Of a stretch of DNA of 64,000 bases, positions 2,365 through 43,600 are shown one piece after another (the first letter of the stretch is position 1; each line of letters begins with the position of its first letter). The DNA lies in the NCBI GenBank assembly GCA_951406725.2, contig OX597815.1:79360001-79424000 (forward strand), given 5' to 3'. The translations under genes were made by a program, and so were the position numbers. Under the pieces are notes generated by a model. That model did not search any database and was not told the origin of the DNA. It saw nothing but the letters and a program-made list of their open reading frames with translations. Origin of the DNA: Octopus vulgaris (Eukaryota).

Positions 2365-2834
2365 ATACAGATAGAAGACAAAATATAAATAATGGTCATT
2401 ACAAATTTTTCCTTTACTGGAGTAAATTTGGTTTACAGCTATTTCTAGTAGTTATTATAGGTTCAGTACTGATAGAGTCATTTCTAGTTAACTAGAAATG
2501 GCTGCATTAAGTTTTTAGGTCACTCAACTTTTCTCAACTGATCAGTAGACAAGTAAACCTGTCAGTAACAAACCTATCATGACTACAGGAAACAGCTGTA
2601 AGCCAAATTTACTCCAATAAGGGAAAAATATGTAACGACCATTATTTATACCTTGTCTTGTATATCACTCTGTGTAAAAACCAGTGTAACTGGAGCACAA
2701 CCACAGATTTACAATATAGAACTCTGATGAACTATGACCTCATACCCTATCACAAGAAAACTTGTGAACAATATTGTTACCCTGGTGTACTAGCAGAGAG
2801 TTTATGAAATATCTTGCCAGACTGATAATCCTCA

Positions 2835-2836
<2 letters not shown>
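2365..2836. repeat. Diverged fold-back element (arms ~2372-2472 / ~2557-2665) with unique tail, between (TA)n tracts
   Basis: ATAAATAATGGTCATTACAAATTTTTCCTTTACTGGAGTAAATTTGGTTTACAGCT is the reverse complement of AGCTGTAAGCCAAATTTACTCCAATAAGGGAAAAATATGTAACGACCATTATTTAT. Microsatellites lie at 2318-2365 and 2838-2872. Confidence 0.8.
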
Positions 2837-2876
<40 letters not shown>

Positions 2877-3589
2877 AACATTTTAAAACTATCATAAAGC
2901 AAAATTATGCAAGAAATGTAATAATATGAATGTCTAACTGTTACCTAATTGATAAACAAATAACAAGTCAAAAATGAAACCGCTACACTAATTGCCCGAC
3001 GTGCTTAAATATCCCTTAAATCACACACTACCACCACAAAAATGGATGAACACACTGGATAATGCTGATGAAAATATACTGAGAAAGTTAATAGATGGAT
3101 ACAGCAAGAGCACCATTGATAATAAGTCTCAAATAATTGTTGGATCAACTCTAAGCCAGAGCTAAAAGACAGAAACCAGTTGTGAATAATATGTAATATC
3201 TAGTGTAATAGAAACTTTCTATGTCTAATAGTACTTACCAAGATCTACTTTTAAAAGAACAAAATTTCAATGAAAAACAAAACAACAAAATGATAATAAT
3301 GTTCAATAATGTAAATGAAATTGAGCCTTAACTTAAAAATTTAAAGGAAACACAAGCAAAAAAAAATTCATGTGATAGAAAAAGACAAAATAATTTACAA
3401 AATAGAATAAAGATAAACAAAAACACTGTGATACTGTTAAGGTAGATGAGAAGAAAAATGAATTAATACTTTTAAAAAATTCAAGAAATTCAAAAAATTT
3501 CAAAAGATATCAGCCCATCACACACATATATATATGTATGTATATGTATATATATATATACACACACACATACAGTTGCCTAAGAATCC

Positions 3590-4622
3590 TTAAGTCAGAA
3601 GAATAGGCACTTATATGTTTGTCAATAGAATTGGTATACAAAATAAAGTATGCAGTATTATAGAGCCATTACACCCAATTTTACCAATTGGTTTCATGCC
3701 AGATATTAGGTAACTTGGCTGTTATTTAATAAAGATGCTCTTCAAGGACGGCAGGTATGGATAAAGATATGGTAAATGCCCCCTTTATTGAAAGTGAGAA
3801 AATGTGACATCTAGTTTGAAAGCGCTGACAGAAAGATGAAACAAAGTTGCATGTGACAATTAAGGGATTTATCAAGGGTTATGTCCCTTTCTCCCACAAA
3901 CCCCACTGAGTTAACTGTAATGCAACAGGATTTAGTGAGTAAATGTATGTGCAGGGATGAAGGGGTTGGTGGATATGTGTAGGGGTACTTTGGAACAGGA
4001 AACTGGGCAAGTGCCCAAACATTCAACCTCATATTTGGGGCATATCCTATGTAAGAATGGTTTGGCCAAAACTTGGTTCTCAGAATGTGATGGTGGTGGG
4101 GAGATGAAGGAGATTTTGGCGTTTATAATTATGGTGGAACCTCTAGCAAGCTAACATGTATCTTCTCTCATGTAGGTATGGGCCTAAAATCTCATTTTTG
4201 CAATATAGGTAAATGTCTGGGTGATGAGATTTTTTAATATAATTCTTTTCTTGGTTAGACATAACCTGTATTTCCCACTACTATCAAAATGAAGCTTGCA
4301 TTTATCCAAGGTTTTCCTTTTGATGTTGTAATTCATGGTCATCGAAGTCAAGTGTCATGGATTACAACATCAAGCAGAAAATCTTGGAGAAGTGCAAGCG
4401 TTATTTTAATAGTTTTAGAAAATGCAGATTATGTCAAGATGAGAAAAGAATTATATTAAAAAAATTATGATTACATCCAATAACTGAGAGCAGTTACTTA
4501 TCTTTTCCATATTTGCTGTTCCTGAAGAGCGTATATATTAGATAAAACCCAATTACCTAATATCTAGTATGAAACCAATTGTTAAAATCACCTGTAATAC
4601 CTCTATAATACAGTATACTTTG
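3590..4622 (-). mobile_element. Penelope-like retroelement 3' remnant with inverted duplication
   Basis: Plus 4360-4465 reads DYNIKQKILEKCKRYFNSFRKCRLCQDEKRIILKK. The minus copy reads NYNIKRKTLDKCKLHFDSSGKYRLCLTKKRIILK and, after a frameshift, CKNEILGPYLHERRYML. This fits the CxLCxxEK...NxRxE...CxH C-terminus of PLE GIY-YIG proteins. Inverted pairs: 4229-4337/4356-4466 and 3644-3780/4488-4621. Confidence 0.75.
4522..4584 (+). ncRNA. Degenerate type I hammerhead ribozyme motif (inverted copy ~3682-3745, minus)
   Basis: CTGAAGA, helix II ATATTAGATA/TATCTAGTAT, then GAAAC-CAATT-GTT. The inverted copy has the intact palindromic helix III GAAAC-CAATTG-GTA. Helix I is decayed. Confidence 0.55.
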
Positions 4623-4648
4623 AGATATATATATATATGCACACACAC

Positions 4649-5504
4649 ACAGGGTGAAGTGAATAAACTGCCGTCTGAATTACATGAAAATAACACTGAC
4701 ATCTCATTTTAACATATATATTTACCAAAATTACAGGAAAATATCTTGAAATACTAAAGAGTAAATTTATTTTTTAAAAATCGCTATTGGCTTCAACCAC
4801 GGCCACCAGTCGATTTTGGAATCTCCTGCAACTCTTCTTGATGATCTCCTAGTCTTAGGTTGGTGAATAGTGCTTGCCTTCAGTTCATCTTTGATGTTAC
4901 ATGGAGTTTTGTTGGTCTCTTGCTCAACTGCTGCCCACACATAATCAAGGGGGTTGCAGTCTGGAGAGTTAGGTGGCCAGATGTTACGGGTGATGTGGTT
5001 GCAGAAATTGTCCGACAGCCATGACTGGGGTCTTCTGCTTGTGTGGCATGGTGCAGAGTCCTGTTGCCAAACATAGGATCTTCTAGCAGCCATCCTCTAG
5101 ACCCAGGGCAGCACTACCTCCTCTAGGCACTTGATGCAGGCCTCTGTGTTGAGTTTGAGGCCGTGTGGGAAGATGAATAGAGGCATAATGTCACCATCAC
5201 TAGTGATCACTCCAAACGTCATGATGCTGACTGGATGTTTTATTTTTATTACTTTTGGTACATGTCCTCAGATTGACACCCAAATACTCCAAAATGTTTG
5301 TATTGGAGCTGCCAGCATGAATGCCAAGCAGTAAAGCTTGTCATTTCCAGATTTCTGGCAGAGTGAATTGTATCATGGTGCTGTTTTTCTCACAGATGGA
5401 GATCAACTGACCCTAATATACTGTGTAGTTGACGAAATCAAGAACAATGTGCATACGTAAAATTAAGAATATAAAATGGTGACAATTTACCCATTGCACC
5501 TTGT
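4649..5504 (-). mobile_element. Tc1/mariner superfamily DD37D (maT-type) transposon fossil, internally deleted
   Basis: ORF 4767-5093 has WQQDSAPCHT...WPPNSPDCNPLDYVW with 37 residues between the two catalytic Asp. Imperfect CAGGGTG / CACCTTG-TA termini. Confidence 0.8.
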
Positions 5505-5510
5505 ATGTAT

Positions 5511-5560
<50 letters not shown>

Positions 5561-5612
5561 ATGTATGTATGCATGTATGTATGCAACATATATATTATGC
5601 ATATTTATACAT

Positions 5613-5654
<42 letters not shown>

Positions 5655-5966
5655 GTCACTTATTTTTATTCATTAATTTTAATTATATATTTATTTACTT
5701 ATTTATTTGCTTATTTCATCCATTTATTTGGATCACTTACACATATGATTGTAATCAATTAATAAATAGATATAATTGAATATTTACAAGCTGATGTTTG
5801 TTGATTGTTTATCCTCCCCATTTTCTTATTTGCCTTATATATTATACATGCATGTATGTATATACACACATATATACATATATATATACACCTACATGTA
5901 TTATATATATACACACACACATATACATACATGTATGTATATATACACATATACATACATACATAC

Positions 5967-6015
<49 letters not shown>
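5505..6015. repeat. Compound (TA)n/(TATG)n/(CA)n microsatellite field
   Basis: Directly visible; source of the spurious YI/MYVC ORFs. Similar fields occur throughout the window. Confidence 0.95.
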
Positions 6016-6272
6016 AGTAAGATTCAGTTGAATTAGGTACTGAAATTGAGGCATCTTATTAGGTCGGAATAATATATACGCATGTAACAATATTAAGTAA
6101 GTATCAAACTTGGTACATAAGTACTGGCCGAATGATATTCATGCAGTATATGTAGACAATTAGACCTAGCTGGGTCAAGAAATCTGCTCTTGAGCTATTC
6201 AGACATTATATTAAATACACTGTCCATAATATCTACGAAGGACAGATTCCGAGACAGGTGAATAAAATATGA

Positions 6273-7089
6273 GTAACAGTAGAGGTGCAGGTGTCAATCC
6301 ATTATGGCCATTTCTAACAACTCCTTTAATTGATTAATGAAGATATTACATCATTGGAAAGAAACTGTTTTCACAGATGAATTCATGAACTTCAAAATAA
6401 AGGACATTCAGAATGATTTAACAGAGTTTAAAATCCAAGGAGTAAAATCATTTACAGTGACTCTGTTACTATTTCAGTTGGCAGAATGGATTTATCAGAA
6501 TAGTGTATATTTGATCAGAACAGAGAAACTTAGTGGTTAGTAGAGTTTTTAGGAGTGGGAAGGAATAATTGACTCCAGTGACCCAATTATCTATACTTCT
6601 AACAAGAGAGGAGGGTACATCTCCAATAGTCCAGATTTATCTATTGAGGTGTTGTTTAATGTCTACTGGTCATTGGTAAGAAAATGATTTGTGGTCAGGT
6701 CAACCTACTAAATTATCAAGGTAACTGGACTATTGGAGCTGCGCCCTCCTCTCTTGTTAGAAGTATAGATAATTGGGTCACTGGAGTCAATTATTCCTTC
6801 TCCGCTCCTAAAAACTGTACTTACTCCTAAATTTCTCTGTTCTAATCAAATATACACTATTCTGGTAAATCCATTCTGCCAACAGAAATAGTAGCAGAAT
6901 CACTGTAAATGTTTTTGCTCCGTGGATTTTAAACTATATTAAACCATTCTGAATGTCCTTTATTTTGAATTTCATGAATTCATCAGTGAAAACAGTTTCT
7001 TTCCAATGATGCAATATTTTCATTAATCAATTAAAGGAGTTGTTAGAAATGGCTGTAATGGATTGACATACCTGTACCTCTACTGTTAC
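6273..7089. repeat. Long inverted repeat, ~360 bp arms (6273-6634 / 6725-7089), ~90 bp loop
   Basis: Arms align base by base, roughly 90% by eye (e.g. CCATTTCTAACAACTCCTTTAATTGATTAATGAA vs TTCATTAATCAATTAAAGGAGTTGTTAGAAATGG). Unique extension 6020-6272; (TA)n on both sides. Confidence 0.92.
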
Positions 7090-7203
7090 ACATTTATATA
7101 TATATAATTTCAACAATTGAGGGTAAAATTAATTAATTATTAATCAATTTCACCAAGTGTTCAGTATGCAAAGGGACCATTTAAGGCGAATTCAAATTAT
7201 TAC

Positions 7204-7828
7204 ATTATATAAAAGGGCTTAGTAAAATAAATTACTTTGCCGCATACTGAACTCATTAGAAATAGCAGCTAAAAAACTTTTTTAAAGCTATTTCTAATAC
7301 TTAGAAAATCTCTCTCATATAGTGTTTGCTTAACTCAACTCACGAAAGTTTGGGGGTAAGGACATCAAAAAATCAAATGCAAAGGTTATTTGAGAACGTA
7401 CGTTTCAAGATTAGTCAACACGACACTTCTATCATCAGCTCAGAAACTCCTTGGTTTGGATTTGAAAACACTGAAAGTAAGAGCATACTTACGGCTTCTC
7501 ATCGCTTTCGAAGATCTTCGAAAGCGATGAGAAGCCGTAAGGGTATGCTCTTACTTTCAGTGTTTTCAAATCCAAACCAAGGAGTTTCTGAGCTGATGAT
7601 AGAAGTGTCGTGTTGACTAATCTTGAAACGTACGTTCTCAAATAACCTTTGCATTTGATTTTTTGATGTCCTTACCCCAAACTTTCGTGAGTTGAGTTAA
7701 GCAAACACTATATGAGAGAGATTTTCTTTAAGTATTAGAAATAGCTTTAAAAAAGTTTTTTAGCTGCTATTTCTAATGAGTTCAGTATGCGGCAAAGTAA
7801 TTTATTTTACTAAGCCCTTTTATATAAT
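7204..7828. repeat. Near-perfect 625 bp spacer-less palindrome, centre 7514/7515
   Basis: Centre CATCGCTTTCGAAGA|TCTTCGAAAGCGATG. Arms differ only by a few 1-2 nt indels. Unique tail ~7105-7203; (TA)n flanks. Confidence 0.95.
7587..7642 (+). ncRNA. Minimal type I hammerhead ribozyme-like motif (mirror copy 7389-7444, minus)
   Basis: TGAG-CTGATGA(7593-7599), imperfect helix II (AGA/TCT, GTC/GAC, U.U first pair), GAAAC(7625-7629)-GTAC-GTT-CTCA. Helix III is the palindrome ACGTACGT, helix I is TGAG/CTCA, triplet GUU. Confidence 0.6.
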
Positions 7829-7856
7829 ATATATATATATATATATGGAGAGAGAG

Positions 7857-8109
7857 ATAATTGTATAGGGTACAATTATACTTAAGGGCACAAAAGCTAT
7901 CATGCCTATATGCTGAAACAAGTTTTCAAATGTCTTACCACTTCAAATATTCACTCCACATATATTTCACACAGGTTGTGTAAAAACCTGTGTAAAAAAT
8001 ATACGTGGAGTGAATATTTAAAGTGGTAGGACTTATTTGATGTCTTGTTTCAGCATATAGGCATGATAGCTTTTGTGCTCTTAAGTATAATTGTACCTTA
8101 TACAATTAT
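7857..8109. repeat. Hairpin element, ~120 bp arms with short loop, plus tail to ~8205
   Basis: ATAATTGTATAGGGTACAATTATACTTAAGGGCACAAAAGCTATCATGCCTATATGCTGAAACAAG pairs with CTTGTTTCAGCATATAGGCATGATAGCTTTTGTGCTCTTAAGTATAATTGTACCTTATACAATTAT; (TA)n flanks. Confidence 0.9.
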
Positions 8110-9218
8110 ATATAACTCCGTATGTATTTTAGCTAAAAGGTTTTTTTTATATATGCATGTCACTGATAAAATTCATTAATTTTAATGATATTATCCTATT
8201 ATGCTTTATATATATATATATATATATTGAGAAAAAAGGTCACCATAATTTTGGGAAAAAAATCTTATTATTTATTCATTAGCGCTTTTGTTTGTTTCTT
8301 GAACTTGTCAAATGTATTCTTTATTTATACATGCACGTGCGCGCGCGTGTGTGTGTGAGTATTTATACATGCATGTATACACACATAGCCTCGTGATAAA
8401 GAAATTCACTTCATATGCATATAACTTTGGGTTTAGTCCCACTGCTTGACACCTGGTCAGTTTTTCTATTATGACCATAAGCTAACCAAAGCCTTGTGAT
8501 TGAATTTGATAGATCAAAGCTGAGTAGAAGCTTATCACAACACACACACACGTTTTTTTAAACTTGTACCTAAATTAGGAACACTAGTTATTATTATCAT
8601 GATTATTGTTTGTTACCATTACACTGATGGAGTAACAGAAACATGAGAATCATGAACTAAATACTGTGATATCTTCACCATTGTGCACTATGAGTTCATA
8701 ACTTAGGTTGATTTTGTTTCTCTTTCTTCTAAGGCTGATAAAATATGTTCTATCAATATACTAGAGATAATCTCATTATCAAAATTCCCTCCTCTGTAAA
8801 TTTAAGGTCATATGTCAAAGTTTTCATGATTATTAACAATCATAACAACAAAAATGATAATAATAATCCTGCTAAATTGTATAATAAACACAAAAAGCTA
8901 ATTAGAAATAAGCAGAATAATATTAAAGATAATATTTTTGATTTTGTTCCATAGTTAATATTGTTCCATAGTTAATATTGTTTACTTCTTAACATAAAGT
9001 GAAAAATAACAGACAACTCACTAAGTAGAAGCTGTATGAATATGATAATTTTCAGAGATGCTGTTTCTGGAGGTTGCACCTTTAATACTATTCATATGGA
9101 CTTTTACAACATCTCAAGGTTCTAATGGTTCAGAAAAATATACAATTCCATCTTACAATTTTCAAGATAACCATGAAATTTCCACAGGGTGTGACCAGCA
9201 ATAGTAATAATAATAATG

Positions 9219-9900
9219 ATCCTTTATTCTATAGGCAGGTCTGACAGTTTGGAGAAGGAGGTTAGATGAATACATTAACCCCAGTGTTCAACTGGTATTT
9301 GTTTTATTGACCTCAGAAGGATGAAAAGCAAAGTGAACTTTTGGTGGAATTTGAACTCAGAATGTAAAGATGAATGAAATGCTGCTAAACATTTTGTCCA
9401 GCAAAGGCAACCGTTCTGCCATAATAATAATAATAATAACCCTTCCTACTATAGGAATGAGACCTGAAATTTTCAGTGGGAATGGGGTAAGTCGATTACA
9501 TTGACTCCAGTGTATAATTGGTACTTGATTTATCGACACTGAAACGATGAAAGGCAAAGTTGACCTTGGTGGAATTTGAACGCAGAACATAGCGATGGGC
9601 AAAATATCATTAAGCATTTTGCCTGGCATGCTAACGATTCTGCCTGTTTGCCACCTTATGCCATAATAATAATAATAAGAAGAAGAAGAAGCAACCTTTG
9701 TACAATAGGCACAAAGCCTGGAGTTTGAGGTGATAGCTGATTACATCGACCTCAGTGCTTGACTGATACTTTTGCCATCGACCCCGAAAGGATAAAGGCT
9801 AAGTCAATCTTGATGGAATTTGAACTCAGAACATAAGGTCAGACAAAATGCCACTAAGCATTTTTCCCAGCATGCTAATGATTCTGCCAGCTTGCTGCCT
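9219..9900 (-). mobile_element. Three head-to-tail copies of tRNA-derived SINE family B separated by (TAA)n
   Basis: ~200 bp unit (GATTACATCGACCCCAGTG...GGAATTTGAACTCAGAAC...TAAGCATTTT...GATTCTGCC) at ~9219, ~9440 and ~9695. GAGTTCAAATTCC is a B-box-like motif on the minus strand. Confidence 0.8.
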
Positions 9901-10093
9901 TAATAATAATAATAATAATAATACTTCCAATCAATTTATTTCCTAAAATGATTTCAAAATCAGAAAATTATTTACATAAATAACAGCAAAAATGTGTCAA
10001 ACACATAAAAGATACATTTGGGCTTGAAAGAAACACCCCCACACCCACACCCACACATGGGGGTGGTATGTGTGTGCATATATATGTGTGAAT

Positions 10094-10144
<51 letters not shown>

Positions 10145-11494
10145 TACACAGATATATTTAATATTACATAGACAATAGTATCCACATTCAACAAATTAGT
10201 TCAGAAAATAGAAAAAATATGAATGATATGGAGGAACATAAATAAACATTAGAAATTTAATAAAAATACATAAACAATTAAATAAAAATACACAAAAATA
10301 AAAAGAGTAGAAATAACAGATAAACAAACATTCAAAAATAAAATTAATAACAACAAAATATGAAAGAAAAAAAACAAGAGCAACAACATCAAACAATAAT
10401 GGCAGATATAAAAATGCAGGTAGGTGAAAGGGTCATTTGAGCAAGCAATATGCATTTGTTCATTCATGGAGAGAGAGAGAGAGAGAGGTGGGGATAGAAA
10501 TATAAAGAAAGACAGATGTACAGAGGTAGATTGCGAAAGAAAGGAAGGGAAAGAATGAATTGTAAAAGAGAGAGAGAGACAGAGTGCATGAGTGTGGGTT
10601 CATTTTGTGCATGACAGTTTTTCTGCAAGGAGAGAGAGAAAAAATACCAATTGTGACAGGGGATGTCAAACATAGGTGGTGTGATGCATCGATGAATTTT
10701 ACTATTTCACCTAAAAATAAGTTTGTGCACTTGTATATGCAGCTATATGTGTGTGTGCGTGTGTGCATATACTTAACTACAGGTATTCATCTTAGTTCCA
10801 CTAGCTAAATATGCCATATTTATTTCCATATCTTTAAACTTAAATGATCATGTATGTACCCACGAAAAAATACATCTATATACCCCTGAATACACACACA
10901 GTTGCACACATACAAATCTCCCTCTCTCTCTCTCTCTCTCTCTCATATGTGTGACTGAGTTTGTGTACACTCATATATAAGCAATCATTCAATTGCCTGT
11001 TCATTTGTCTTATGTTGGGTTTTCTATGCTGGTATAGATGGCATGGGTATTTATTTGAAGCAGTATGTCATAGTTGGATGCTCTCCCTATCACCAACTCT
11101 TATCTGTTTAACAAATAAGGGACTTTTTTTTTTATTCCTCTACCTTAAGAGTACATAGTTATGGACATAATGGTCACCAGGAATGTAAATATGGCAACAT
11201 TTTTTTTGCTCAGGCAATCACATGTAAAGGACCAGGAATGACAACATGACACAAACCCACACTCACACACCAACATGCATGCATGCAAATGAATAGGCAC
11301 CCCCATACGCATGAGTGTGTATGTGTATTAATGAACAGCCAACTAGTTTTCATCTACCAATTCAACTCACAGGGAAAAGGTGAGCCAGAGATAACAGTAG
11401 TGGGCATTTACTCAAGGTACAACACAATCAGACAACCTAAAACCATGTGGCATCAATGCAAACTTCTTAACCACACTGTGGTATTTGTACCAAT

Positions 11495-11533
<39 letters not shown>

Positions 11534-12329
11534 TACAACTCATCTACTTCGAATGCACATATATGCACATGCATGCAGGCACTAATATCCTATTGAAATA
11601 AGTTGCAGAAATACAAACATACTAAATACCAAGTTAACAAAGTGAAAATATATCTGAAATACAGAACTTGAAAGTAATACTGAATTTTTTTTATTCGATG
11701 TCTTTACTTGCAGACTTACTCGCAGAGAGAAACTTGGAATATTATACAAACACACACACGTGTGTGTGAGTATACAAATGTGTATGCATACGTACATACA
11801 TATATACACACACACACACACATACATATGTATGTGTTGTCATATGCACACACACACACACACACACACCAACATGTGTGTGTGTGTGTGTGTGAAATAT
11901 CTATAGAATAGAAATGGATCTCTGTCAGTTTCAAGAATGTTCTGTTATTGGAGCAGCTGAACTACCTTTATTGAAATAGACATGACAATTCAATGAGAAA
12001 AAAGTCAAGATAATTGAACAGAACATTTCTGAAACAGAAAGAAAGCCATTACTATTTTATAAATATTTTACTTATATATGAATGTGTGTATGTGTGTAAT
12101 TCCAAGCTCTCATCTAGCTTACTACTCCAAGTTTCTCACTGGGAGGTCTACAAATGAAGACATCTGACATTGAGAAATGCAGAATTAAGAATACTTTCCA
12201 AGTTCTCGATTTTAAATACTTGTAGAGTACTCAATGGACATATGTAACCTTAACATAATCCCCAGGAACAATCAGTGTGCCAAAGCTTGACCTTTTAATT
12301 ACAAGTGCAATCATCCACAAATATATATA

Positions 12330-13978
12330 TGAGGGACCAGCTATCCAAATTGACAGTACCTTGGTAAATAAAGCAATTAAGGCTATGAAGACAGGGAAAG
12401 CCCCTGGCCCATCAGTAATCACCAGTGAGATGCTTAAAATACCAGGTGGTGTAGGCTATGGTCTAGTCACCCGTATAGTCAACAAGGTGATACATGAAGG
12501 AGTCATACCCTTATCCCTTATCTGGTGGTCAATGCAGAAACTAGTAGATGAGTGGTTAATGAAAGCTGTACAAGCCTCCAGGCAATAACAGAGGAATTCA
12601 AGACAAGCTGTTCTTGAGAGGTCCTCTATGCTGATGACCTTGCTCATATAGATGAATCACTACCAGAACTAGAGAAGTTTCAGGTGTGGAAGCAATGTCT
12701 AGAATCAAAGGGCCTTAGAGTTAAAAAACCCCAAAAAGCTTAGTAAGTAGGAAGGTGGACAAATCACAAATCCTTTCAGGTAGATGGCCCTGCTCAATAT
12801 ATAGAAAAGGCATAGGTAGAAACTCCAAGAGATGTAAGCTATGGACACATAAGAGGTGCAGCAATATCAGAGGAAGGTTAACAAGGAAGATAGTTTTTGT
12901 GTGTTGAAGGTGCACAGGTATAATAAACACCAAAAACGTACAGATAATAGATTCTATCAAATGCCAGTGGGAAAAACTAGAAGTAGTTGATAGCTTCTAT
13001 CACCGAGGTAACCAAGTCAGTAGTAGGGGTGGATGCTCTGAGAGCATAGCTGCTACAATAAGAATAGGCTGGGCAAAGTTCAGAGAGCTCCTACTCTGTT
13101 GGTAACAAAGGGCTTCTTGCTCAGAGTGAAAGGCAGACTGTGTGATGCCTGTATGTGAACAGCCATGCTATACGGCAATGAAACATGGGCTGTGACTGCT
13201 GAGGACATGTGTGGGCTTGTAAGAAATGAAGCTAGCATACTTCACTGGCTGTGTAATGTCAGTGTACATGCACGACAGTGTGTAAGCATCCTGGGAAAAA
13301 TGTTGGACTTAAAAAGCATCAGATGTGATGTGCAAGAGAGATGACTGCGCTGATATGGTCATGTGATATGTATGGATGAAAACAGCTGTGTGAAGAAGTG
13401 CCGCACTCTAACAATGGCGAGAACTTGTGGAAGAGGTAAACCCAGAACGATATGGGACGAGGTGGTGAAGTATGATCTTCAAATGTTGGGCCTCACAGAG
13501 GCAATGACAAGCAACCAAGACCTTTGGAGATATGCCGTGCTTGAGAAGACCTGTCAAGCCATGTGAGATCGTAGTCATGGCTGATGCCAGTGTCATTTAA
13601 CTGGTCAGTTAAAAGCACCCTTCAATTGTTGGGTAATATGCTGTGCTTGTGAAGGCCTGTTGTACTGAGTGAAATTGTAGTTGTGGCTGATGCCCATGCT
13701 GGTGGCACATAAAAAGCACCATTCAAGCAGTGAACGTCATGGAAGCAGTGACAGGTGACCAAAACCCTTGGTGATATACCATGCTTGTGTTGACCTGTAT
13801 TGACCTTGTGTTGACCAGTGGCAGGTCAATGGCACCCGTGCCAGAGGCATGAAAGAAGCACCCACTACACTTGCCATATCAGATTGGAATCTGGTGTAGC
13901 CCCACCAGTTTTCAATCAAACCACTCAACCCATGCCAGCATGGAAAGTGGACATTGAAGTAAAATGATGATGATGATG
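12330..13978 (+). mobile_element. RTE-clade LINE remnant (RT to 3' UTR, (GAT)n tail)
   Basis: Fragments KAMKTGKAPGPSVITSEMLK, LYADDL, AMLYGNETWAVT and GRGKPRTIWDEVVK with many stops and frameshifts. The 3' end is shared with SINE family C. Confidence 0.85.
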
Positions 13979-14237: not shown

Positions 14238-14873
14238 TACAAGGTGTGATCAATAAGTATCTGGACTGTTGCCATAGTAACAAAGCTAAAACATGCAGAG
14301 TGAAGCCATTTGGGACAGATTAACCTTGGACTCTGCTGTGCATGTGCACTAAGTATTAATGTTCACAACCAGCAGAACTGAGAAAAACATTGCAGAAATG
14401 TATGCAGCTGTGAGAGGAAATCGTTGAATCACCATCCATGAGTTATCAGAGGATGTGTAGATTAATTATGGTTCAGTTCAGTATCACTGAAAATTTGGGT
14501 ATGAGATGCGTATCTGCCAAAACTGCTTTCAGCTGACCAAAAAGACATTCAGGTTTCAGTCCTGCAAGAGCTCCTTGACTGTGTTGAGAATGATGAAAAT
14601 TTAAAAAAAAATATTGTGTAGGTCTCTGAGCAAGTATCACCAAGTTTTTGGCAAAATTTGATGCACACTCTCTGCTCAACCTTTGTCATGGTCAATATGA
14701 CAATCACATGTTACACACCTTCCTTCCAAGCACTGCTGTAAACAGCAGAAGTGAGCTGGAACTTTAAAACTTAGTGCGAATGCATAGCAGAGTTCAAGGT
14801 CAATCTGTGCCAAGTGGCTTCACTATGCATGCTTTAACTTCATTACTATGGCAACAGTCTGGATACTTATTGG
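14238..14873. mobile_element. Non-autonomous mariner-like element with ~120 bp terminal inverted repeats
   Basis: CAATAAGTATCTGGACTGTTGCCATAGTAA...GCACTAAGT is mirrored by ACTTAGTGC...TTACTATGGCAACAGTCTGGATACTTATTG. Internal transposase debris (ENLGMRCVSAK); the right outer end is truncated. Confidence 0.8.
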
Positions 14874-14902
14874 TAAGTAGGTAGATATGTATGTATGTAT
14901 GT

Positions 14903-14934
<32 letters not shown>

Positions 14935-16433
14935 ACACACACACATATATATATATATATTTATTTATACATACATACAAACAAACAAAAGACTTCTTTC
15001 AGTTTCTGTCTACCACATCTACTCATAAGGCTTTAGCAGCCTGGGGATAGAGTAGAAGACACTTACCCAAGCTGCACACACATACATACAACAGATATTT
15101 GCATACATGCAATTAAAACATATGCTCTTTTCTTAAGAAACATATTTGAAGTGAAATATATTTCCATCATAATCACTCGCGTAATTTAGAAAGTCAATAA
15201 GGGTCGAAATAGAAGAAAAAATAAATAAAATATAACGAACATAAAAAGCAAAAGTAAAATTACAACAGAGGAAAAGTAAAAAAAAATGCATTATGAAGCA
15301 TATTTAGATAACAAAGAAATGTAAATATATATTGTGTCTATTTTTGTCTTAACATCTGTTTTTCCATGCTGGCATGGGTTGGACAAACACTCTTTGAGGA
15401 AGTACTTTTCAACCAAGTCCTCCTTCTGCCAGCAATCCTTAACATTTTTTAAGCAAGGAATTTTTCATTCTGCTGGTCATTGAAAGTGCAGAGCCATTAG
15501 ATGCATAGTTTACATGGAGTGTAAATGTTCAAACAAACACTCAAAATTGAACATAAACACACCATTATCATCCTCACTGTTTTGATGCCTACTTTAATGT
15601 GCTTGCTTAAGTTAGATGAGACTACTTTGGGACAGAGTTTTCTCCAGCCTGATACCTTTCTTGATGCCAACCAATGCCTGTCTCCATACAGATAGTCCAG
15701 ACATAGGTACATGGAAATCTGGAAACAACAGGCACTGTTTAAATGAGTCTTGTGATTACAAAGACCACACAACAAGTCAAAATATGGCAAGAAACCTGGA
15801 GGTGCTTTCATAGGGGGCTGCAAGCAAAACAACTCATCTGTATGAACAGTGATGCATTTGTTTACAAGCAGTGAGCACACGTGGAAATGAAGGGAATATT
15901 AACTCAGCCACAAAAACATAAAACCACATACACTCACACACATATATTATTAGGTCTTTTAAATTCTATCAGTTTCATTCATGTGGTATTAGTCAACCTG
16001 CAATTATAGTACAGGACATTGGCCAACAGTTGCAATCAGACATAAACACCTTTGACCCCTTCACCTTTGTCTATGGTAGGAAGGGAGAGAGGAATGCATC
16101 AGTACCCAGCTGGTACTCATTGTAGCTGAGTTAACAATAGCAACATGAAATCTAGTGCCTTCCTTTCGCAAGTTCACAAAATGCCATCTGACATAGATAC
16201 TGAACCCACAAGCTTATGATCATGTCAAACACTCTTGCCATTAGGCCATGTACATACGTCCCTTTCACTCCAAAATGGAGACAAACATCAATATTCTATG
16301 TGGTAAGCTTGATAATTGTTAAGGGCTTCCTGAACACATGAAACCAATGGTAGCCTTAATCCACAAACAAAGAATCTTTATCCACCAATACGGTGTTAAG
16401 CACTCATTCATATTGATATTTATGTATGTGTGT

Positions 16434-16487
<54 letters not shown>

Positions 16488-31479: not shown

Positions 31480-31513
<34 letters not shown>

Positions 31514-33554: not shown

Positions 33555-33567
33555 AGAAAAGAAAGGA

Positions 33568-34048: not shown

Positions 34049-34215
34049 ATTTTAGTGAAACTCACAAATTGGATAAGTTTTAAGCAAATTGAATAAGTGA
34101 AGCCTTTCATAAGAAATAAAGACATCTTGACTTTCTGAAGAGCTTTGCTTTAAATGACAGCAGTTTCATTTCCATAGCATATAAACTTATCCAAATTTAT
34201 GAATTTTACTGAAAT
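34049..34215. repeat. Old short inverted repeat (~55 bp arms)
   Basis: ATTTTAGTGAAACTCACAAATTGGATAAGTTT vs AAACTTATCCAAATTTATGAATTTTACTGAAAT; short (TA)n on the left. Confidence 0.6.
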
Positions 34216-35338
34216 ATTTTTGTCTAGGCAGATAAACACTAGTTTTCTTGGGTTCTGGATTTTATGAATATCACAAGTCTGGCAGTCTACCCTTTCTGTG
34301 ACTTTACCACACTAATAATAATGATTTCTCATACTAGTACAAGGCCATGAACTTGTAGACTATAGAAATAGTTAATTAAATCAAACCTTGTACATGACTA
34401 GTATTATTTTATCAATACTAATCAGATGAAAGGTCAAGTCAACCCCAGAAGAATCTGAAAGATGGATGGATGAAGTCACATCCCAAAGATAAGGCATTCA
34501 AGCAATCATTTCCACGACTGCAGTGATTTAATAAATAACAAATCAATCACAGCATTAATAATGGTAATGATGATAACAATTTCATTTATAGTAACAGAGC
34601 TTCAGCTTCATAGGTAGCCAAAAATGTAATTTTGACAATTATACCTATTTTAGAGAAGCAGTTCTAGCTGCTTAATAAAACCAGGGGTTCAAATAGTTTT
34701 GGAAAAAATCATAGGACTTCTTATTAGGTGATCAGAAGCATGTGTTCAGTTAATGAACAAAATCTAAATAGCAGCAGTTGAATATGAATAATATGTATCA
34801 ATGAAAACCTATCTCAATATTAGTGTGATCACTTGAGAAGAGCAGGATTTAGCAAAAGGACATAATTTGCCAGGAACTTACTTCTAAACTTCAAACTAAT
34901 TTTTAAAATACAAGTAGTCTCAAAGTTTCAGATTTTAAATGGAGGAAAGTAAGAAATAATGATCCTATCTTTCCAGAGGGCAATAACCACAGAATGGAAG
35001 TGAAAAAGAAATGTAAATCACAGATCCAGACTGTGGTGAACTTAACAGGTATGTTTACATAAGTAAGCAAGTTATTTCAAATTCATATTTATTTTGACAT
35101 GGCAGAAAGCTGATATCTGTCAAAGTTAGAATAGGGTTAGTATTATAATTTCTGATATTAAGATTATCAGTTCCTTGAAGCAACAAAAAAATTTGTACTC
35201 AGAAAAGTGAAGTATCTAACTTAGCATTTTTTCTGAGTCGTCTCTGACAGTGTAAGTTTTATTTTCTTAACAGTATAAAAAAAAATTTTTTTTAAATAAA
35301 GCATAAAAGAGAGTAAAGACCTTGTCTTGAGAACTTAC

Positions 35339-35470
35339 TATATCTGATACCATGGCTGTCACTGGCCATTCCGATGTACTTGTCTTTTGTTTTTTTGGCT
35401 TTCTTCCGTTCATCTCTTAGCCTCTCATCATCCTGGATGAAATCAATCAATTCTTTACCTTTTTGCCGTA
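35339..35470 (-). CDS. CLINT1: CLINT1/epsinR coding exon (ENTH C-terminal helix)
   Basis: (V)RQKGKELIDFIQDDERLRDERKKAKKTKDKYIGMASDSHGIRY. Acceptor TTCGTTTCAG|TA, donor A|GTAAGT; 132 nt, phase 1 to 1, after an ~18 kb intron. Confidence 0.93.
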
Positions 35471-37279
35471 CTGAAACGAAACAAGAATACAAAGAAATTA
35501 TTTATGTCAATATTATCATTAATGTCATCAACTTTGTTTTAAAGTTCACTTTTCCAGGTTTGCATGGAAAAGTTTTCTGTTTAGATTCCCTTCCTGTTAC
35601 CAATCTTCAGCTGTTTCCAAGCAAGGTAATGCTTCTGCAAGACTGGAAATATTTTCATGTAAGATTCAACATGAAGGACAAAGTTTGTATGACAGTGATG
35701 CTCATTTAGAACTATTGTACATCAAGACCAACACACACAAACAAATTTCTTTTAGTTTCCATCAACCAAAGCCACCAACAAGGCTTTGATTGGCCCAGGT
35801 TTATAGTAGAAGATACTAGCCCAAGATGATACATAGTGGAACTGAACCAGAAACCATGTGAGTGTTGCTTTAAAATCCCAAGAAAGAATTTAGAAGTTTG
35901 AGAAACTAAGATCACAACGGTAACCTAACTGGGTCTCATTTATTGACAGCCAAAGGATTGCTATTTCAACCTGATAACCAAAAGAATGTGATTTTGTGAT
36001 TTCAACTTAAATAGGTCTCATAAATGACAAAACAAAAGTTTCAAACTAGAGGCATCTCATTTCTATTTACTCAGAATATCCTAATAATTCCTCATTTTTA
36101 TGCTCAATTTTCCATGTTTGCATGGGTCAAGAACAAAAATATTGAAATGCTTATAAGAAGTTTGTATACACTAAGGGACAGCTTGTTTACAACTCTTGTG
36201 ACCTATATCCAATGTTTATACATATAAACTTTTTAAGCGAGTCAGGTATACATTGGAAATGATAAGCTAGCTGATGCCTTCCTAGTATATTTACCTTTGG
36301 CAACATTTATTTCAAAATGTTGAAAGGTAATTTGCACTTCAGAAAGGCAAAGTTTGCTCTCGTAAGTCTAAATGTATCACTGTCAGACAAATGAAACAGA
36401 TAATCTATTTCCCCTGACTGCAACCTAGGGTTACAGTGAGAGAACTGTTTTGATTTTTATTTATTTAAACAAAAATTAGATTACCATAATAGATATGAGA
36501 GAAATAACTTCTTTCTGTGTTAGGATATAGGTAGCTCATGAAATAGAAGAAATGCATTAACACAAATTGGTGCTTTGGTTTCTTTTTTATTGTTGCTGTG
36601 TGTGTGTGTGTTTGGACTTCATAAATGAGAAAAGAATGTATGTCATAGCAGTGGAGTTTATTCATTTTCAAAGGTATGATCGATGCAAGCATTACTCTAT
36701 GGTTTAAAAGTTTGCTTCACAATCAAAAAGTTTCAGGATCAATTCCACTGTGTGATACCTTGGATAAGTGCATCTTACTATAGTCGCAAGTTTACCAATA
36801 AGTGAAATTTGGTTGATGGAAACTGTACAGAAGCACATTGCATATATCTATCTATATATATATATTGTGTGGCATGTATGTACAAGTGTGTTTATTCTCC
36901 TTTCAGGAGTGTTCAAATCTAAACAGAGGCAAACAAGGGAGATAACTACTATAAAATCAGCGGATCCAAATTTCTGGCATGACAATGAAATACAGGAATT
37001 ACCCCATGGCCAGGCATGTTTTTACAGATGTTTTATAATGAAGAACACTGCAACATGATGGTGACACTCATTTACAAGTATCACAATGTCAAGGCAAGGC
37101 GACAATAACACACACGCTTACATATATTTATGATGGACTTCGTTCAGTTTCTGTCTACCAAATCCACTCATAAGGTTTTGGTCAGCTCAGGGCTACAGTA
37201 GAAGACGCTTGTGAGACTAAACCCAGCACCATGTAGTTGAGTAGCAAATTTCTTACCAAACCGCCATGGTTCCACCTCT

Positions 37280-37745
37280 ATATATGTAAAAGTCCTGCAA
37301 TTTGCTGGTGCAGTTAGTGTGGAGGCCCTCATTACCTCATCGCAGCTGCACAAAGTAAGACATGTTTGCAGGATGGAGAACGCAGGGTCCCAAAGGCAGT
37401 TTTCTATGCTGAACTGTGTTGGGGCAAGTGGAGCTGTGGTGGCCACAGGTTCTGATACAGGGATGTGCTGAAGAGGCATATGAAGAACTTTGGCATCTTG
37501 CCAGACACCTAGGAAGAGACCATCATACAGCACTATGAATGCACCAATTGCTGATGCTTGTAATTCCAGCCATTGAGGAGAAACAACAGAAGGAAAATGA
37601 AAGAGCACATGTGAGGTGTCACTTCTCCATTACACCAAGTAGCTTCACCTACAGCAGATTAAAATAAGCTCTTGTAGCCCACATGCAAGCCTGTCAGAGA
37701 TGACTGCTGAACAAGAACAGTCAACATTAACCTTTGACAGACAGC
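37280..37745 (+). mobile_element. RTE-BovB-like LINE 3' fragment
   Basis: SVEALITSSQLHKVRHVCRMEN...YRDVLKRHMKNFGI resembles the RTE C-terminal region; ends in (AAG)n. Confidence 0.6.
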
Positions 37746-37985
37746 CAAAGAAGAAGAAGGTGAAAGTAAAATAAGCTCAGTACAGGTAATACAGTATAGT
37801 GCTCAAATGAACAGGAACTTCAACCTCTTTATCCAGAGCTGATTTGACTTTATTTTTTCTTCTGATGAAGTTGATCAAACAAGTACCAAGCATATACCAG
37901 AATAGATTCAATAAAATTTATGTTCTCATATGCCTATATAAAAATTTATTATTATTATTATTTTTGTAAATTGTGTGTGCTAGTA

Positions 37986-38322
37986 TCTTTTATCTTTTAC
38001 TTGTTTCAGTCATTAGACTGCATCTCCTTGAAGAATTTTTAATTGAATGAATTGACCCAACTACTTATCTTTTTTTAAGCTTGGTACTTATTCTATTGGT
38101 TTCTTTTGCTAAACTGTTAAGTTAAAGGGAAGTAAACACACCAACACCAGTTGTCAAGCAGTGGTCACACACACATGTGTGAGCTTCTTTCAGTTTCCGT
38201 CTACCAAATCCACTCACAAGGCTTTGGTTAGCCTGACATTTGTCCAAGGTGTCATGTAGTGGGACTGAACCTGGAACCATGTGGTTGGGAAGCAAGCTTC
38301 TTACCATACAGTCATGTCTGCA
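37986..38322 (-). mobile_element. SINE family A copy
   Basis: Minus-strand head GTATGGTAAGAAGCTTGCTTCCCAACCACATGGTTCCAGGTTCAGTCCC (tRNA-like boxes) through to the 3' GAAACAAGTAAAAGATAAAAGA tail. Confidence 0.8.
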
Positions 38323-40366
38323 CCAACATATATATGGGTTTCTGTATTAAGTAAGCAAATACGGATATTACATTGATATCAACAATGAGTTTAGATGCTC
38401 AATCAACTACCAATTTATTGAATTATAGAGTAAGTGGTTGAGTATTTGACACAGTGATCCTCAAGCAGAATCACTGTGACATTGTGTAATAAAGCTGACT
38501 CTTTAAATTCTATGTACTGCTCATCTGACGGGGCTCAATATGTCAGATCTAATAAATCTGACTTGCAGTTATGGAAGGAGGGTGCAGTGAAGTGAGACTG
38601 AACACATGACCACGCAACTGCAAAATAAATTTGTTAACGATTCAACAATACCTGTTCCCAAATTTCTGTGTGTATTTGTGCAAATGCATTTCCTATTCTC
38701 ATTTGATATGTGAATGAATATCTTCACATCTGTTTCCTTATTGTTTGTTTCTGCACCCCTTCCCCTATATAGTCTGAAGAGAGTTGACCATGTTGCTAGC
38801 CATTCTACTTTTATGTTTCTTATGCACTGGAGGATAGAGATAATACTTGTTTGAGGTTAGGTCAAGGTTGTAATGGTGACTGACTGGGGGGAAAAAAGAG
38901 CAGTTGGGGGTTAGACTATTTTAAGCTATGGATAAGTTGGGTTCAGTTGTTCATAAAAGCTGGTTCTGCTTTGGTTGTAATTGTGTTACAGTTGGCTGGG
39001 CAAAATAGTTGAAAGTAAACTAGCCAGTTTAAATACTGTTTACATGTTTCCAGAGAAACCACCTTAGAATTAATTCCATCATTTATTACTTTATATGTAT
39101 TTTACAAACTTTTATATGAATGCCAAAATAGCTGAACTAACAGCACATATATGTTGAATTCATAGCCAGTACAGGTTATTTTGTTGTTTATTGGAACATG
39201 TTAATAGTTTCTGCCACTTAGGTAACTGCATTGATGCTGGAGGTAGTTGTGATAAAAATAATCATTAGAGAAAAGAGTGAACAAACCTGAATAAATTTCC
39301 TAGTGTATACCTCATAATTTTTTTTTTATTAACCCTAGAAGAATGCAAAGTAAAGTTAATCCCAGTTGAATATGAACTCAAAAGGCAGAGTAGAAACTGT
39401 AAGATTTCCTGACATGAGTCCTCAATACAGAAATATTGTAGGATTATGGTTGTTAAAACCATGAGCAAATTTGTATAGATGTGTCTTTGCTAGTATAGAT
39501 ATTTTATGTGAATGAATGACTCTTGTTGAATGAAAATGTATCATATGCTGTCAGTAGGAGGTATCTTAGGGTAGAGAAAGCTCAAGAGAGAAATGGGAAG
39601 TAGTAAGGTCTAGTCTGAGAATGTTGGGTGGCTGAATACAAGACTGCATGCCGACTTAAATCCTGCCAAAATAAATTTTAAAAAATAGTAAAATAAAGAG
39701 GGAGGTGATGATATGAGTAGTACATCTTTACATGCTTGAATTCAGCCAGTTGTTGGGAACAATATCTGGGAATGTTACCCGAGATAGATCATCATCATAT
39801 GAAGAGCAAAAATTTACTTTCTGCTTAATATCATAAAGCTAGAACCAAGTACCAGACCTTATGAGTACATCTAGGATTAAAAAACTGAAAAGTTCAGCTA
39901 TAACAATCTTACTATGTAAGCCAATGATTTAACTTACATTCTCATGTGATACTCGCAAATAGAAACAGTTATTTAAAGAATAACAATATGTTTATTCAAG
40001 AAAGAAAATTCTTACTTCAATATTTTCTATTAACAAAGAGGTTAGTTTAGTTTACTCGTAGAGGTAGCAAGTCAGCAAGAGAGTTTCTATGTAATTACTG
40101 AACTTGCTTGGTATAGTATTCAAATCTCTCTCTAAAAAAGATAAAGCTGGCAGAAACGTTAGCATGCCAGGCAAAATGCTTAATGGCATTCCCTCTGTCT
40201 TTATGTTCAGAGTTCTAAATCCTCCAAGGTCTGGCTGTGTGGTAAGAAGCTTGCTTCTCAATCACATGGTTCCAGATTCAGTCCCACTGTGTGCTACCTA
40301 GGGCAAGTGTCTTCTATTATAGCCTTGTGAGTGGATTTGGTAGATGGAAACTGAAAGAAGCCCGTC

Positions 40367-40413
<47 letters not shown>

Positions 40414-40512
40414 GGAGTAAACACATAAATGTGAAACAAGGTGGAAAAAAGAGTACTCAAATACCAGTGGTAGAGTAATATGCTTTATTTTAAGCAGCAG
40501 AAAATTCAACAA

Positions 40513-40556
40513 AATCTGTTACTCTGAGTTTCTCGTTGCCGTTCATCAGACAGTTT
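40513..40556 (-). ncRNA. Mirror copy of the hammerhead motif, sense to CLINT1 pre-mRNA
   Basis: Exact reverse complement of 40575-40618. Confidence 0.75.
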
Positions 40557-40574
40557 TTGCTAGAATTCTAGCAA

Positions 40575-40618
40575 AAACTGTCTGATGAACGGCAACGAGA
40601 AACTCAGAGTAACAGATT
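40575..40618 (+). ncRNA. Minimal type I hammerhead ribozyme motif
   Basis: Helix I CTGT/ACAG, core CTGATGA (40582-40588), helix II A-CG-GCAA-CG-A (GNRA loop, first pair A.A mismatch), GAAAC (40599-40603), quasi-palindromic helix III ACTC-A-GAGT, triplet GUA (40609-40611). AATAAA lies ~30 nt downstream. Confidence 0.75.
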
Positions 40619-43600
40619 TTGTTGAATTTTCTGCTGCTTAAAATAAAGTATATATATATATATATATATATTTGTATATGTATATGAGTGTCTGTTCCCC
40701 AACCCATCACTTGACAACCAATGTTGGTGTGGTTACATCCCCGTAAATTAGCGGTTTGGCAAAAGATATCGATAGAATAAGTATTAGTCTTACAAAGAAT
40801 AAGTCCTGGAGTCAATCTGTTTGACCAAAACCCTTTAAGGTGGTACTCCAGCATGACTGCAGTTAAATGACTGAAACAAGTAAAAGAATAACCCTTTCAA
40901 CAACCTTTAAAACAAGGTCCTCATATTTTGAATTCAAAATCTTAACACTGCTTCACTCTTGATAAAGACATGGCTAAATACATTGATGGCATTCTTTCTT
41001 CGAGCAGTATCCCATTGATCGCATTTTACATTCAGTGTTCAGTGCCATGTATACACCAAGTTAAAGCAAACCAAGATTGCTAAACATTTTAGTTTCATTA
41101 GAGACCAGCAAAGTCAATTGATACCTCAACTACATTCTTCATAGAGACATTTCTGTATCTTTTTATGTTGCCCCTGCTTGGACTTTGCAACTGAGCTTTG
41201 AAGATCTATTCTGATCCTAACTTTAACAAAGTGCTACAGAATTAGTACAAGAGGTTGAGAAATCCACAGGCAAAATTAAATCTGCATAAATAGCAGCATG
41301 AGCACCAGAACAAGCAACGACATCTGGAATCTTATAAATTGGATAAATTTTATAACAATAAGATTGTAAAACTAGGAAATTTACATTGAATAAATTTAAA
41401 AAGGCGAGAGGAAATATAATTGCTATACATTTTTTCTCTTAAGTTGCTATTTCAACAGAGAAATGCTAAGAATATAAGGCTTTTAGAAGTTGTAGCACAT
41501 GCAGCGAGAAAAGTAAAGACAATCCTTGGAAATGATCTATGAGCAACAATAGTAGGTCTGATGTAGCTCATCCTCTGTAAAATATGTTTATGTTTAAGTA
41601 ATCAAAATATTGTTTGATAGTTATTTCAATGTTTGAGATTAGATCTGTAGTTTTAAAGTGTAGCACAATACATACACACACACACACAGAGGATATGCAT
41701 GCACATACACAAAAAATATATACAAAGGACGTAAAGACTATGGACTAGAGTAATGATATATTCACAAACAGCTGGTAATAATTTTTTTTTTATCTGACCT
41801 ATTCAGTCATGTCTCACAATTATAAGAGAAGCTGTAATAACTATGTGAGACAGATTTAGAAAAAATGGTATTATTGTTGCTATGAAGACACAGTCAGCTG
41901 TACTTGAGCTAAGCCTATAACATGTACAAAGAAATACTTAAAGTAACCCTCATAACTAACTCTCTTCATATACCATGCTTAGTCCTAATCAAAGAACAAG
42001 AATTTATAAATAAACATAGAATAATTGATTATTTAAGGTGGAGTGTGTCAATTAGGGTGCTTTGTACCTGTTACTTTGACCAATCTCTCTTATTATTTAT
42101 AATCAAAGCTCCCAGTTTTCAAAAATAGCATTCTAAAAAAATATCTAAATGCATGAAATGAATTGATTTGAATAAAATTATAATTTTTTTCTATACTATT
42201 AACCATACCTTCTAAATTGAAAAGGCTTTTTTTGTAGGTGCAAGCAGAGCATAGATGCAAGCATGGAACAGACACAGGTACGTGGTCTAGGATTCAGTCT
42301 CACTGTGTGGCACCTTGGGCAAATGTCTTCTATTGCCTCAGGTTGATCAATATCTTGTGAGTGAAACTGGAACTTGGAAACTGCATAGAAGCCTGTATGT
42401 GTGTGTGTGTGTGTATATATATATATACACATATGTATGTGTGTGTGTGTGTGTAGACAGACATGCAGGCAGTCAGACAGACAGACATACATACACACAC
42501 ATATATGCGCATTATTTCTTATAGCTCTGAGAGGTGGAATAAGAAAAACATTTTCATATATAAAAGAGGTAAGGGTGGAGTGAAAGGAAAAGCATCCGGC
42601 CTTAAATAAGTACTTGGCTAATCCAAGTCTGCATAAAGATGAACATAAAATGAATGAATGAACACTAGGTTTCAAAAGGTTCGTTTGCCAAAATTCATTA
42701 TGTGTACATAAGCCTAAACTAGAAACATTTCTTTGTAATCAAACTGCAATAAGATATGTTAATGTCTCAGTCATTAATTTAGGGCATGATGACTTTACCT
42801 GACATAAGTTCTGTGTTCAGCTTACTCCAGTTGACATGTATCTGGTATGGGATCTTGTTTAGGGTTAGGGACACCCAGTGAAAAACCACCGAAATGTGAT
42901 CTGGTATCTGGCGGGGATAGCTGCCTCTTTTTCACCTCAGTTGGAAGCGAACTATGTCTCACAGTGACATACACACTTATATCAGTTACTTTTGAAACAG
43001 TAGAATTCATAATCTTTGACACCAAAATTCAACTATCACAGGAAGGTATGCCTAATAGCAATGCAGGATCATGAGCTCAGAAGAAGACTTGTAAGGTCCT
43101 ATCTTGGCTTGAGATTACCAAATGAATGAATAAATGTTATTAACCTGAGCTTAGAAATACCAGATGACAATTGTGATCAAACTAATAGAGACAGGTGCAG
43201 ATATTTTTTTAAAAATTATCATCTTATGGACTGATTAACAGCCTGAAAATATACTTATATTCATGTCTTTTTTACTTCTAAATTTCATAATAGCATACTC
43301 TACAAAAAGAGGTGAGATGGACAAGAAACACAGTTTTACTGTTATTAAAAGGAAGATAACATTTTCTTGTATTAAAAAATGACACTTTCATGACCTGTAT
43401 GTCAGAGAAGTAATACTATATAGCATTGAAGCATTAGTTGTATCAATACTAAAAAGAAAGCTTTAAAGAACTTAATGAAGTGGAGTGGCCATGATGATAA
43501 TGTGTGTTATATTGTGGGGCTGACTACTTATCACAATGATCTATAATATTTATTGTTTTGCTTCTAGGTAAGATGTATTACTCAAATGTACCTCAATCTA

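Follow-up and report, generated by a model that had tools for sequence, protein, structure and literature searches.

The locus and its six palindromes

The stretch of DNA analysed here, referred to as the window, covers 64,000 nucleotides (nt) of the Octopus vulgaris genome (contig OX597815.1, positions 79,360,001 to 79,424,000, forward strand) and consists of AT-rich, microsatellite-rich animal DNA. It holds six palindromes, E1 to E6, which are likely dead, 5′-truncated insertions of Penelope-like elements (PLEs), each formed by two short 3′-end copies placed head to head in a TA repeat. Such an insertion is called a stub below. The palindromes were located by self-BLAST of the window with microsatellites masked, after which the arms were aligned to each other. 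The features are listed here with the arm identities from self-BLAST.

E1, 2365..2837: head-to-head stub; arms 2371-2663 (73% identity); tail 2664-2837 on the plus strand; hammerhead helix III and GUA at 2589-2601, core decayed; Hydra tail hairpin motif at 2667-2698.
E2, 3575..4622: Hydra-clade PLE 3′ end, head to head; arms 3645-3779/4490-4621 (80%) and 4230-4463 (77%).
E2 left arm, 4339 to 3575, minus strand: endonuclease (EN) end across a frameshift, 3′ untranslated region of ~380 nt, decayed hammerhead (helix III at 3695), 70-nt tail.
E2 right arm, 4336-4622: EN end, internal deletion of ~450 nt, hammerhead region.
P0001, 4336..4467, plus strand: predicted GIY-YIG endonuclease C-terminus with CxxC motif, 62% to P0002.
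E3, 6020..7093: arms 6269-7093 (87%), unpaired centre of ~90 nt, tail 6020-6268; multi-copy family with locus-specific strand switches.
(TA)n common to E3 and E4, 7095..7106.
E4, 7107..7826: arms 7206-7826 (98%); fold at 7514/7515; predicted hammerhead cores at 7593 (plus) and 7438 (minus); tail 7107-7205; structured 3′ end; very abundant family.
(TA)n common to E4 and E5, 7827-7846.
E5, 7857..8206: arms 7857-8109 (88%), 97-nt tail 8110-8206; multi-copy.
E6, 40412..40648: arms 40484-40647 (100%); fold at 40565/40566; predicted Hydra-type hammerhead cores at 40582 (plus) and 40549 (minus); tail 40412-40483 with Hydra tail hairpin.

All six elements were recovered as local palindromes, with arm identities ranging from 73 to 100%. 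An earlier, sequence-only reading of this DNA had proposed that they share one layout, i.e., (TA)n, head-to-head arms, a one-sided tail and (TA)n, despite being unrelated in sequence. The layout holds for six of six, and no element matched another. The boundaries given in that reading were roughly correct, with small shifts: E2 starts near 3575, E4 starts at 7107 and E6 occupies 40412-40648.

Arm-to-arm alignment places a unique tail on one arm only in every element (~170 nt in E1, 70 in E2, 250 in E3, 100 in E4, 97 in E5 and 72 in E6). With an overhang of 70-250 nt on one arm in every case, the six lack the symmetric, fixed-end terminal inverted repeats of a miniature inverted-repeat transposable element (MITE). 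A (TA)4+ run lies 1-3 nt from one end of all six, and at the opposite end the distance to such a run is 1-30 nt, with a CA/TG/GA repeat intervening. For comparison, the share of window positions no more than 5 nt from a (TA)4+ run is 2.0% (7% locally), and for a distance of up to 30 nt it is 5.7% (16% locally). E3, E4 and E5 are three stubs piled up within a single TA tract. Direct (head-to-tail) repeats of the units were not found in the window by self-BLAST.

The sequence-only reading had itself raised fold-back assembly artefacts as a possible source of the palindromes. The arms of E6 (100%) and E4 (98%) are alike enough to suit that explanation, no aligned contig crossed a whole palindrome in E3-E5, and two of the 33 fold-backs listed in the comparative set described below mirror their flanks and look artefactual. 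In four of the six elements, however, the arms are 73-88% alike with indels, the flanks are unmirrored and the tail is found on one side only. The palindromes are judged to be real on these grounds, and an artefactual origin is considered most improbable.

Hammerhead ribozymes

Hammerheads were searched for with a full descriptor and stem checks, with expectations taken from 10 Markov controls. Complete type I hammerheads, which are predicted ribozymes, occur in E4 and E6 only, in both arms of each (four matches scoring ≥10, against 0.2 expected). The half motif GAAAC-palindrome-GUH has seven matches in the window (1.6 expected), six of which lie within E1, E2, E4 and E6. All six point outward from the centre, and therefore the arms are joined 5′ to 5′. 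Four hammerhead cores, from near-intact to decayed, had been proposed earlier; those of E4 and E6 are whole, but only the half motif is left in E1 and E2, where the cores are decayed. Helix II of E6 is just 2 bp long, and its helices I and III are identical to those given for Hydra-2_aMil. Rfam placed no ribozyme family on the window, nor on single arms of E3, E4 and E6; its microRNA matches in the window are sub-threshold and reflect hairpins and microsatellites.

Two further candidates were rejected. The core-like motif in E3 (6986, minus strand) points inward, lacks the helices and has different letters in another copy, and the CUGAUGA in the E1 tail (2724) forms no valid hammerhead. Elsewhere, a solo decayed hammerhead lies at 16320-16365 (plus strand), with the same helix III as Hydra-1_oBim, a possible stem I and a mostly deleted helix II; a microsatellite begins after it, at 16417. 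Near the E4 centre, at 7540-7555, 13 bases match the start of the Hydra-1_Obim consensus by eye, a likeness that is marginal by chance.

The endonuclease end of E2

E2 is the only element that retains a remnant of an open reading frame (ORF). Its right arm encodes a 44-residue peptide (P0001), for which a HMMER search of 1.84 billion proteins gave two matches in total, the best being P0002 (62%, E 1.4e-7). P0002 aligns with both arms of E2 (E 5e-12 and 9e-8). It carries the Hydra CxCX5C linker and aligns to the full-length P0004, a protein of 683 residues with reverse transcriptase (RT) and EN. The window lacks the linker region of E2 itself, where Hydra-clade elements have CxCX5C and no CCHH; the motif was read in its nearest homologue, P0002. 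P0004 and the ORF of a comparative locus, L044, are Hydra-like by motif, and both come from other organisms.

When compared with the published Hydra-clade C-terminal motif, the right arm shows CRLC..E, and the left arm shows a decayed N..E..CxH region beyond the frameshift. The C-terminal GIY-YIG EN of the Hydra clade, with CxxC and CxH around a conserved E and N, was found in E2 only. Because both arms match P0002 and the left arm reaches the Hydra C-terminal motif, E2 is read as a Hydra-clade 3′ end with ~450 nt lost inside the inverted copy. The GIY-YIG C-terminus previously proposed for one element is in fact present on both arms. Pfam names none of P0001-P0004, and the search for viral relatives of P0002 found none.

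A largely open frame also runs inward from the arm end of E3 (6295-6699, plus strand; 135 codons, 5 stops). With its stops read as X, it has no homologue in Pfam, Atlas or the protein collection.

Read depth across E3, E4 and E5

Contigs of four runs, from this organism and a relative, were aligned to E3-E5 only. A single contig has a depth of ~55 (X1), and the summed depths given here do not equal copy number. In E4 the summed depth is 1.2-1.4 million over tail and outer arm, dropping to 0.12 million at the centre. E5 ranges from 655 to 3,316, with its peak at the tail and a fall toward the centre, and the E3 arm (1.8-10 thousand) likewise peaks at the outer ends and falls to the centre.

Some of the six, and E4 above all, might be non-autonomous PLE derivatives, whereby a short non-coding ribozyme RNA is mobilised in trans and inserted as truncated head-to-head stubs. 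The E4 family greatly exceeds the others in abundance (summed depth >1 million vs ~55 per single contig) and its 3′ end is strongly structured (z -4.6), with three consecutive hairpins at 7107-7300 on the minus strand, one of which has an 11-bp base enclosing the short-end site. A variant subfamily retains the catalytic core, with 6 of the 12 listed indels falling in loop II, and no ORF was found in the 400 nt of E4. Yet loose contig ends (X2, X4) show other E4 copies continuing upstream past the fold point, where the parent has a 6-base palindrome, so that an ORF may lie farther up. Retrozyme-like head-to-tail units of E4 were also not seen. This derivation is regarded as rather unlikely. A 21-mer of the E4 tail has no occurrence in the viral and prokaryote collections.

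E3 and E5 could in principle be derivatives of TA-targeting DNA transposons, of the MITE or foldback type, that merely resemble PLE stubs. Both are without hammerhead, EN or tail motif, and remnants of DNA transposons lie nearby. However, the one-sided tail, the drop in depth toward the centre and the variable strand switches fit 5′ truncation and not symmetric termini. Among the strand switches listed for the E3 family, five different ones occur, at single-locus depth and in 2-3 runs. A DNA-transposon origin is held to be distinctly unlikely.

Comparative loci of two Hydra families

For comparison, at least 120 metagenome loci were listed for the E6 hammerhead pattern (family A, 77; family B, 26; other, 17). 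Family B corresponds by eye to the Hydra-2_Amil end. The analyses below use the 103 loci of families A and B among the matches listed, which are partly redundant across samples. They comprise 33 fold-backs (L109 doubtful), 29 single arms and 41 loci truncated by the contig end. In L001, L014, L023, L068, L101 and L104 the hammerhead lies downstream of a Hydra-type EN on the same strand, and L044 shows the hammerhead, tail and (TA)n followed by a full ORF.

The 3′ ends form two groups, at +63 to +78 and +134 to +140, about 67 nt apart. Where both 3′ ends are resolved (20 listed fold-backs), 18 pair a long with a short end, two pair short with short and none pairs long with long; the other 13 have one end cut. 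The two short-plus-short cases have mirrored flanks and are probably artefacts. Among the 28 listed fold-backs whose junctions were compared, 25 distinct junctions were found, several with short patches templated from nearby sequence. Since the junctions differ from copy to copy, each stub arises anew. The subfamily variant is the same on both arms in 17 of 17 listed loci (13 junctions). This concordance does not separate fold-back from two-strand priming, as variants may track host species.

At the 5′ side, 52 of 62 resolved forward arms end 0-12 nt before helix I, and the E6 arm stops 12 nt before it. This pile-up is partly ascertained, because the pattern requires the hammerhead to be whole and contigs break at long copies; its lower limit is 52 of 103 if all 41 unresolved loci are counted as long. 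The tail starts with a hairpin that has a constant base and inner pairs that vary between families. The E6 tail folds in the same way, and the best fold of E1 differs. A relaxed form of the tail-hairpin motif, loosened after E1 had been inspected, occurs three times in the window, twice just beyond the short end of E1 and E6. A tail-only nhmmer profile missed both elements in the window (best E 0.48, elsewhere). No earlier description of the strict long-plus-short pairing, the conserved tail hairpin or the 5′ pile-up was found in open-access text. Together they suggest run-off copying up to the 5′ end of the RNA.

In L052 (860-1604), the tail of another Hydra-type element is directly followed by a family B fold-back stub, a stacking at TA ends like that of E3-E5.

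One may also ask if the palindrome moves as one piece, as a retrozyme-like hairpin family in which the fold point would be fixed. Several contigs of the E3 family stop aligning at 6719-6722, close to 6720, which could reflect a common fold point, and in families A and B the 5′ ends crowd together immediately ahead of the hammerhead. For families A and B, the 25 distinct junctions largely refute such a unit. The varied strand switches in the E3 family, the read-through past the E4 centre and the frequency of single-arm copies (29 of 103) also speak against it, and such a unit is highly improbable. The autonomous-independent, retrozyme-like unit offered as one branch of the sequence-only reading is likewise not supported, given the lack of head-to-tail repeats in the window, the two elements of six without a hammerhead and the fold points that vary in related families.

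Identity of the six elements

The Penelope-like origin first proposed for the six is upheld and can be narrowed. From EN end, hammerhead helices and tail hairpin, E2 and E6 are assigned to the Hydra clade by their sequence, and E1 probably belongs to it. E4 is probably a PLE remnant, of this clade or another. E3 and E5 are likely PLE remnants, an origin that we infer from layout alone. The other branch of the original proposal, extreme fold-back truncation, is supported as well. The stubs are an ordinary by-product of PLE copying and not a new ribozyme system. An age series read from arm divergence is plausible, with the caveat that the arms belong to unrelated families.

Several results weigh against this assignment, in addition to the shared alignment stop near 6720. 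No convincing hammerhead was found in E3 and E5 by the descriptor with stem checks, nor any protein match or tail-hairpin motif. E4 lacks both an EN link and the Hydra tail motif, which bears on its clade. The 64-kb window contains no RT, the protein whose RWK and DKT motifs mark the Hydra clade. Strand switches on a palindromic reference may instead represent deletions in one arm. The comparative loci come from other organisms and were chosen by an exact hammerhead pattern among the matches listed, with 41 of 103 ending at a contig edge. Lastly, the tails measure 67-250 nt, against 30-40 nt in print.

Proposed mechanism

We infer the following enzymatic steps, in which one stub would be one abortive PLE insertion. 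Within a (TA)n tract the RT-endonuclease would cut both strands, and reverse transcription would be primed at both ends of the tail stem-loop, one copy beginning at the near and the other at the far end of the tail. Copying would halt early and leave two short cDNAs, which would then be joined at their 3′ ends by way of either microhomology over a few bases or a small templated patch. Alternatively, an identical layout would result if one cDNA folded back on itself. The loop-less 6-base palindrome of E4 and the templated patches suit end-joining of two cDNAs, and the matching arm variants suit one template; both routes may be compatible with the data. The hammerhead would be a passenger of the pseudo-long terminal repeat (pLTR), decaying after insertion.

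Cutting of both strands and the two start sites are carried over from work in vitro on an anole element, for which PMC11167929 reports both-strand cleavage, two internal RT start sites bounding the tail, and ribozyme cleavage that is dispensable.

It is tentatively postulated, and remains doubtful, that the stubs are programmed run-off (“strong-stop”) products and not random truncations. The enzyme would prime at both ends of a conserved tail hairpin, close to the RNA's 5′ end. From there it would copy back across the ribozyme until it reached a transcription start located 0-12 nt ahead of the hammerhead. This would happen on each strand of the target, followed by end-joining of the resulting two cDNAs. 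In Drosophila virilis, the transcript begins 46 nt upstream of an intron, the end of which directly adjoins helix I (PMC2377424). This lends plausibility to run-off at a start close by, for Hydra elements by analogy only.

Neighbouring sequences

A weak palindrome at 11895-12068 (70%) is followed by ~250 nt up to a short TA run, and the whole (11895-12320) is possibly an older stub. At 14243-14880, terminal inverted repeats of ~145 nt (80-87%) flank a unique middle between TA/CA runs; this element looks like a DNA-transposon derivative rather than a fold-back stub. Between E2 and E3 (4650-5470) lies a Tc1/mariner-like transposase remnant (DDE_3, E 8.8e-5, below the cut-off). At 12259-13700, 55100-56800 and 57300-60300 there are fragments of decayed LINE-like reverse transcriptases, along with several dispersed SINE-like repeats.

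Significance

The stubs likely record how PLE copying starts and stops. The rules they follow are countable: two fixed 3′ ends, no long-plus-long pair in 20 resolved listed cases, arms of one variant, junctions with microhomology or templated patches, and 5′ ends just before the ribozyme. These rules are open to test in an in vitro system of the anole type (PMC11167929). If true, run-off copying would account for the inverted-plus-tail signature of PLEs, and Hydra-clade stubs would provide, in animals with heavy A-to-I editing, a large and unannotated supply of double-stranded RNA (dsRNA) that folds on itself. Loci that form long dsRNA have been reported as unusually frequent in octopus, with no repeat assigned to them (PMC5625713), and the stubs are candidates for these loci. 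Repeat annotation likely misfiles them as MITEs, unknown repeats or microRNA-like hairpins, as the sub-threshold Rfam matches illustrate.

Comparison with known systems

Head-to-head 5′-truncated copies, one-sided tails, (TA)n targets and opposite-strand hammerhead pairs are already in print for PLEs (PMC8557442, PMC3846280, PMC4209133), so that the six cannot be called a new system. Craig et al. 2021 (PMC8557442) described inverted 5′-truncated copies with a one-sided tail of 30-40 bp and a (TA)n bias. Their Hydra clade has hammerheads and includes Hydra-1_Obim, from Octopus bimaculoides, and Hydra-2_Amil. The origin of head-to-head copies with a one-sided tail is stated there as an open question. 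The C-terminal GIY-YIG with CxxC is shared with E2, and E6, E2 and E1 share the short type I hammerhead close to the 3′ end, in which helix III is palindromic. (TA)n targets, an inverted 5′-truncated copy (Penelope-13_HM) and the one-sided tail are also common to both. In contrast, both copies are tiny here, five of six elements lack an ORF remnant and the tails are longer. E3 and E5 fit the layout of Naiad PLEs, with (TA)n and no hammerhead, but are unlike three octopus Naiad 3′ ends, by eye only.

In the Penelopes of Adineta vaga (Arkhipova et al. 2013, PMC3846280), copies also stand head to head, with a palindrome at the junction, and one inverted pLTR bears the tail. In that species the inverted pLTR lies beside a long copy with an ORF, whereas here two stubs are the entire insertion. 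The pairs of minimal hammerhead ribozymes in Schistosoma, on opposite strands and 100-700 bp apart, were read as truncated PLEs by Cervera and de la Pena 2014 (PMC4209133). They are the same object seen via its ribozymes; tails, junctions and TA targets are absent from section 5 of that paper.

Retrozymes are head-to-tail tandem repeats that yield circular RNAs (PMC7229834; bioRxiv 10.64898/2026.07.22.740005). The non-LTR retrozymes of animals resemble the present elements in being non-coding and PLE-related with a type I hammerhead. E1-E6 differ in being head-to-head and single, with two of six lacking a ribozyme, and in having locus-specific junctions. In O. vulgaris, 31 recently active Penelope-like families have been reported (PMC13282606); the passages on them leave this layout undescribed, and the supplement may hold more. 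Because none of the six resembles the published octopus consensus ends by eye, they belong to other families, and E1-E6 are taken to be new families of a known type of PLE remnant, firmly so for E2 and E6, probably for E1 and E4, and by layout for E3 and E5.

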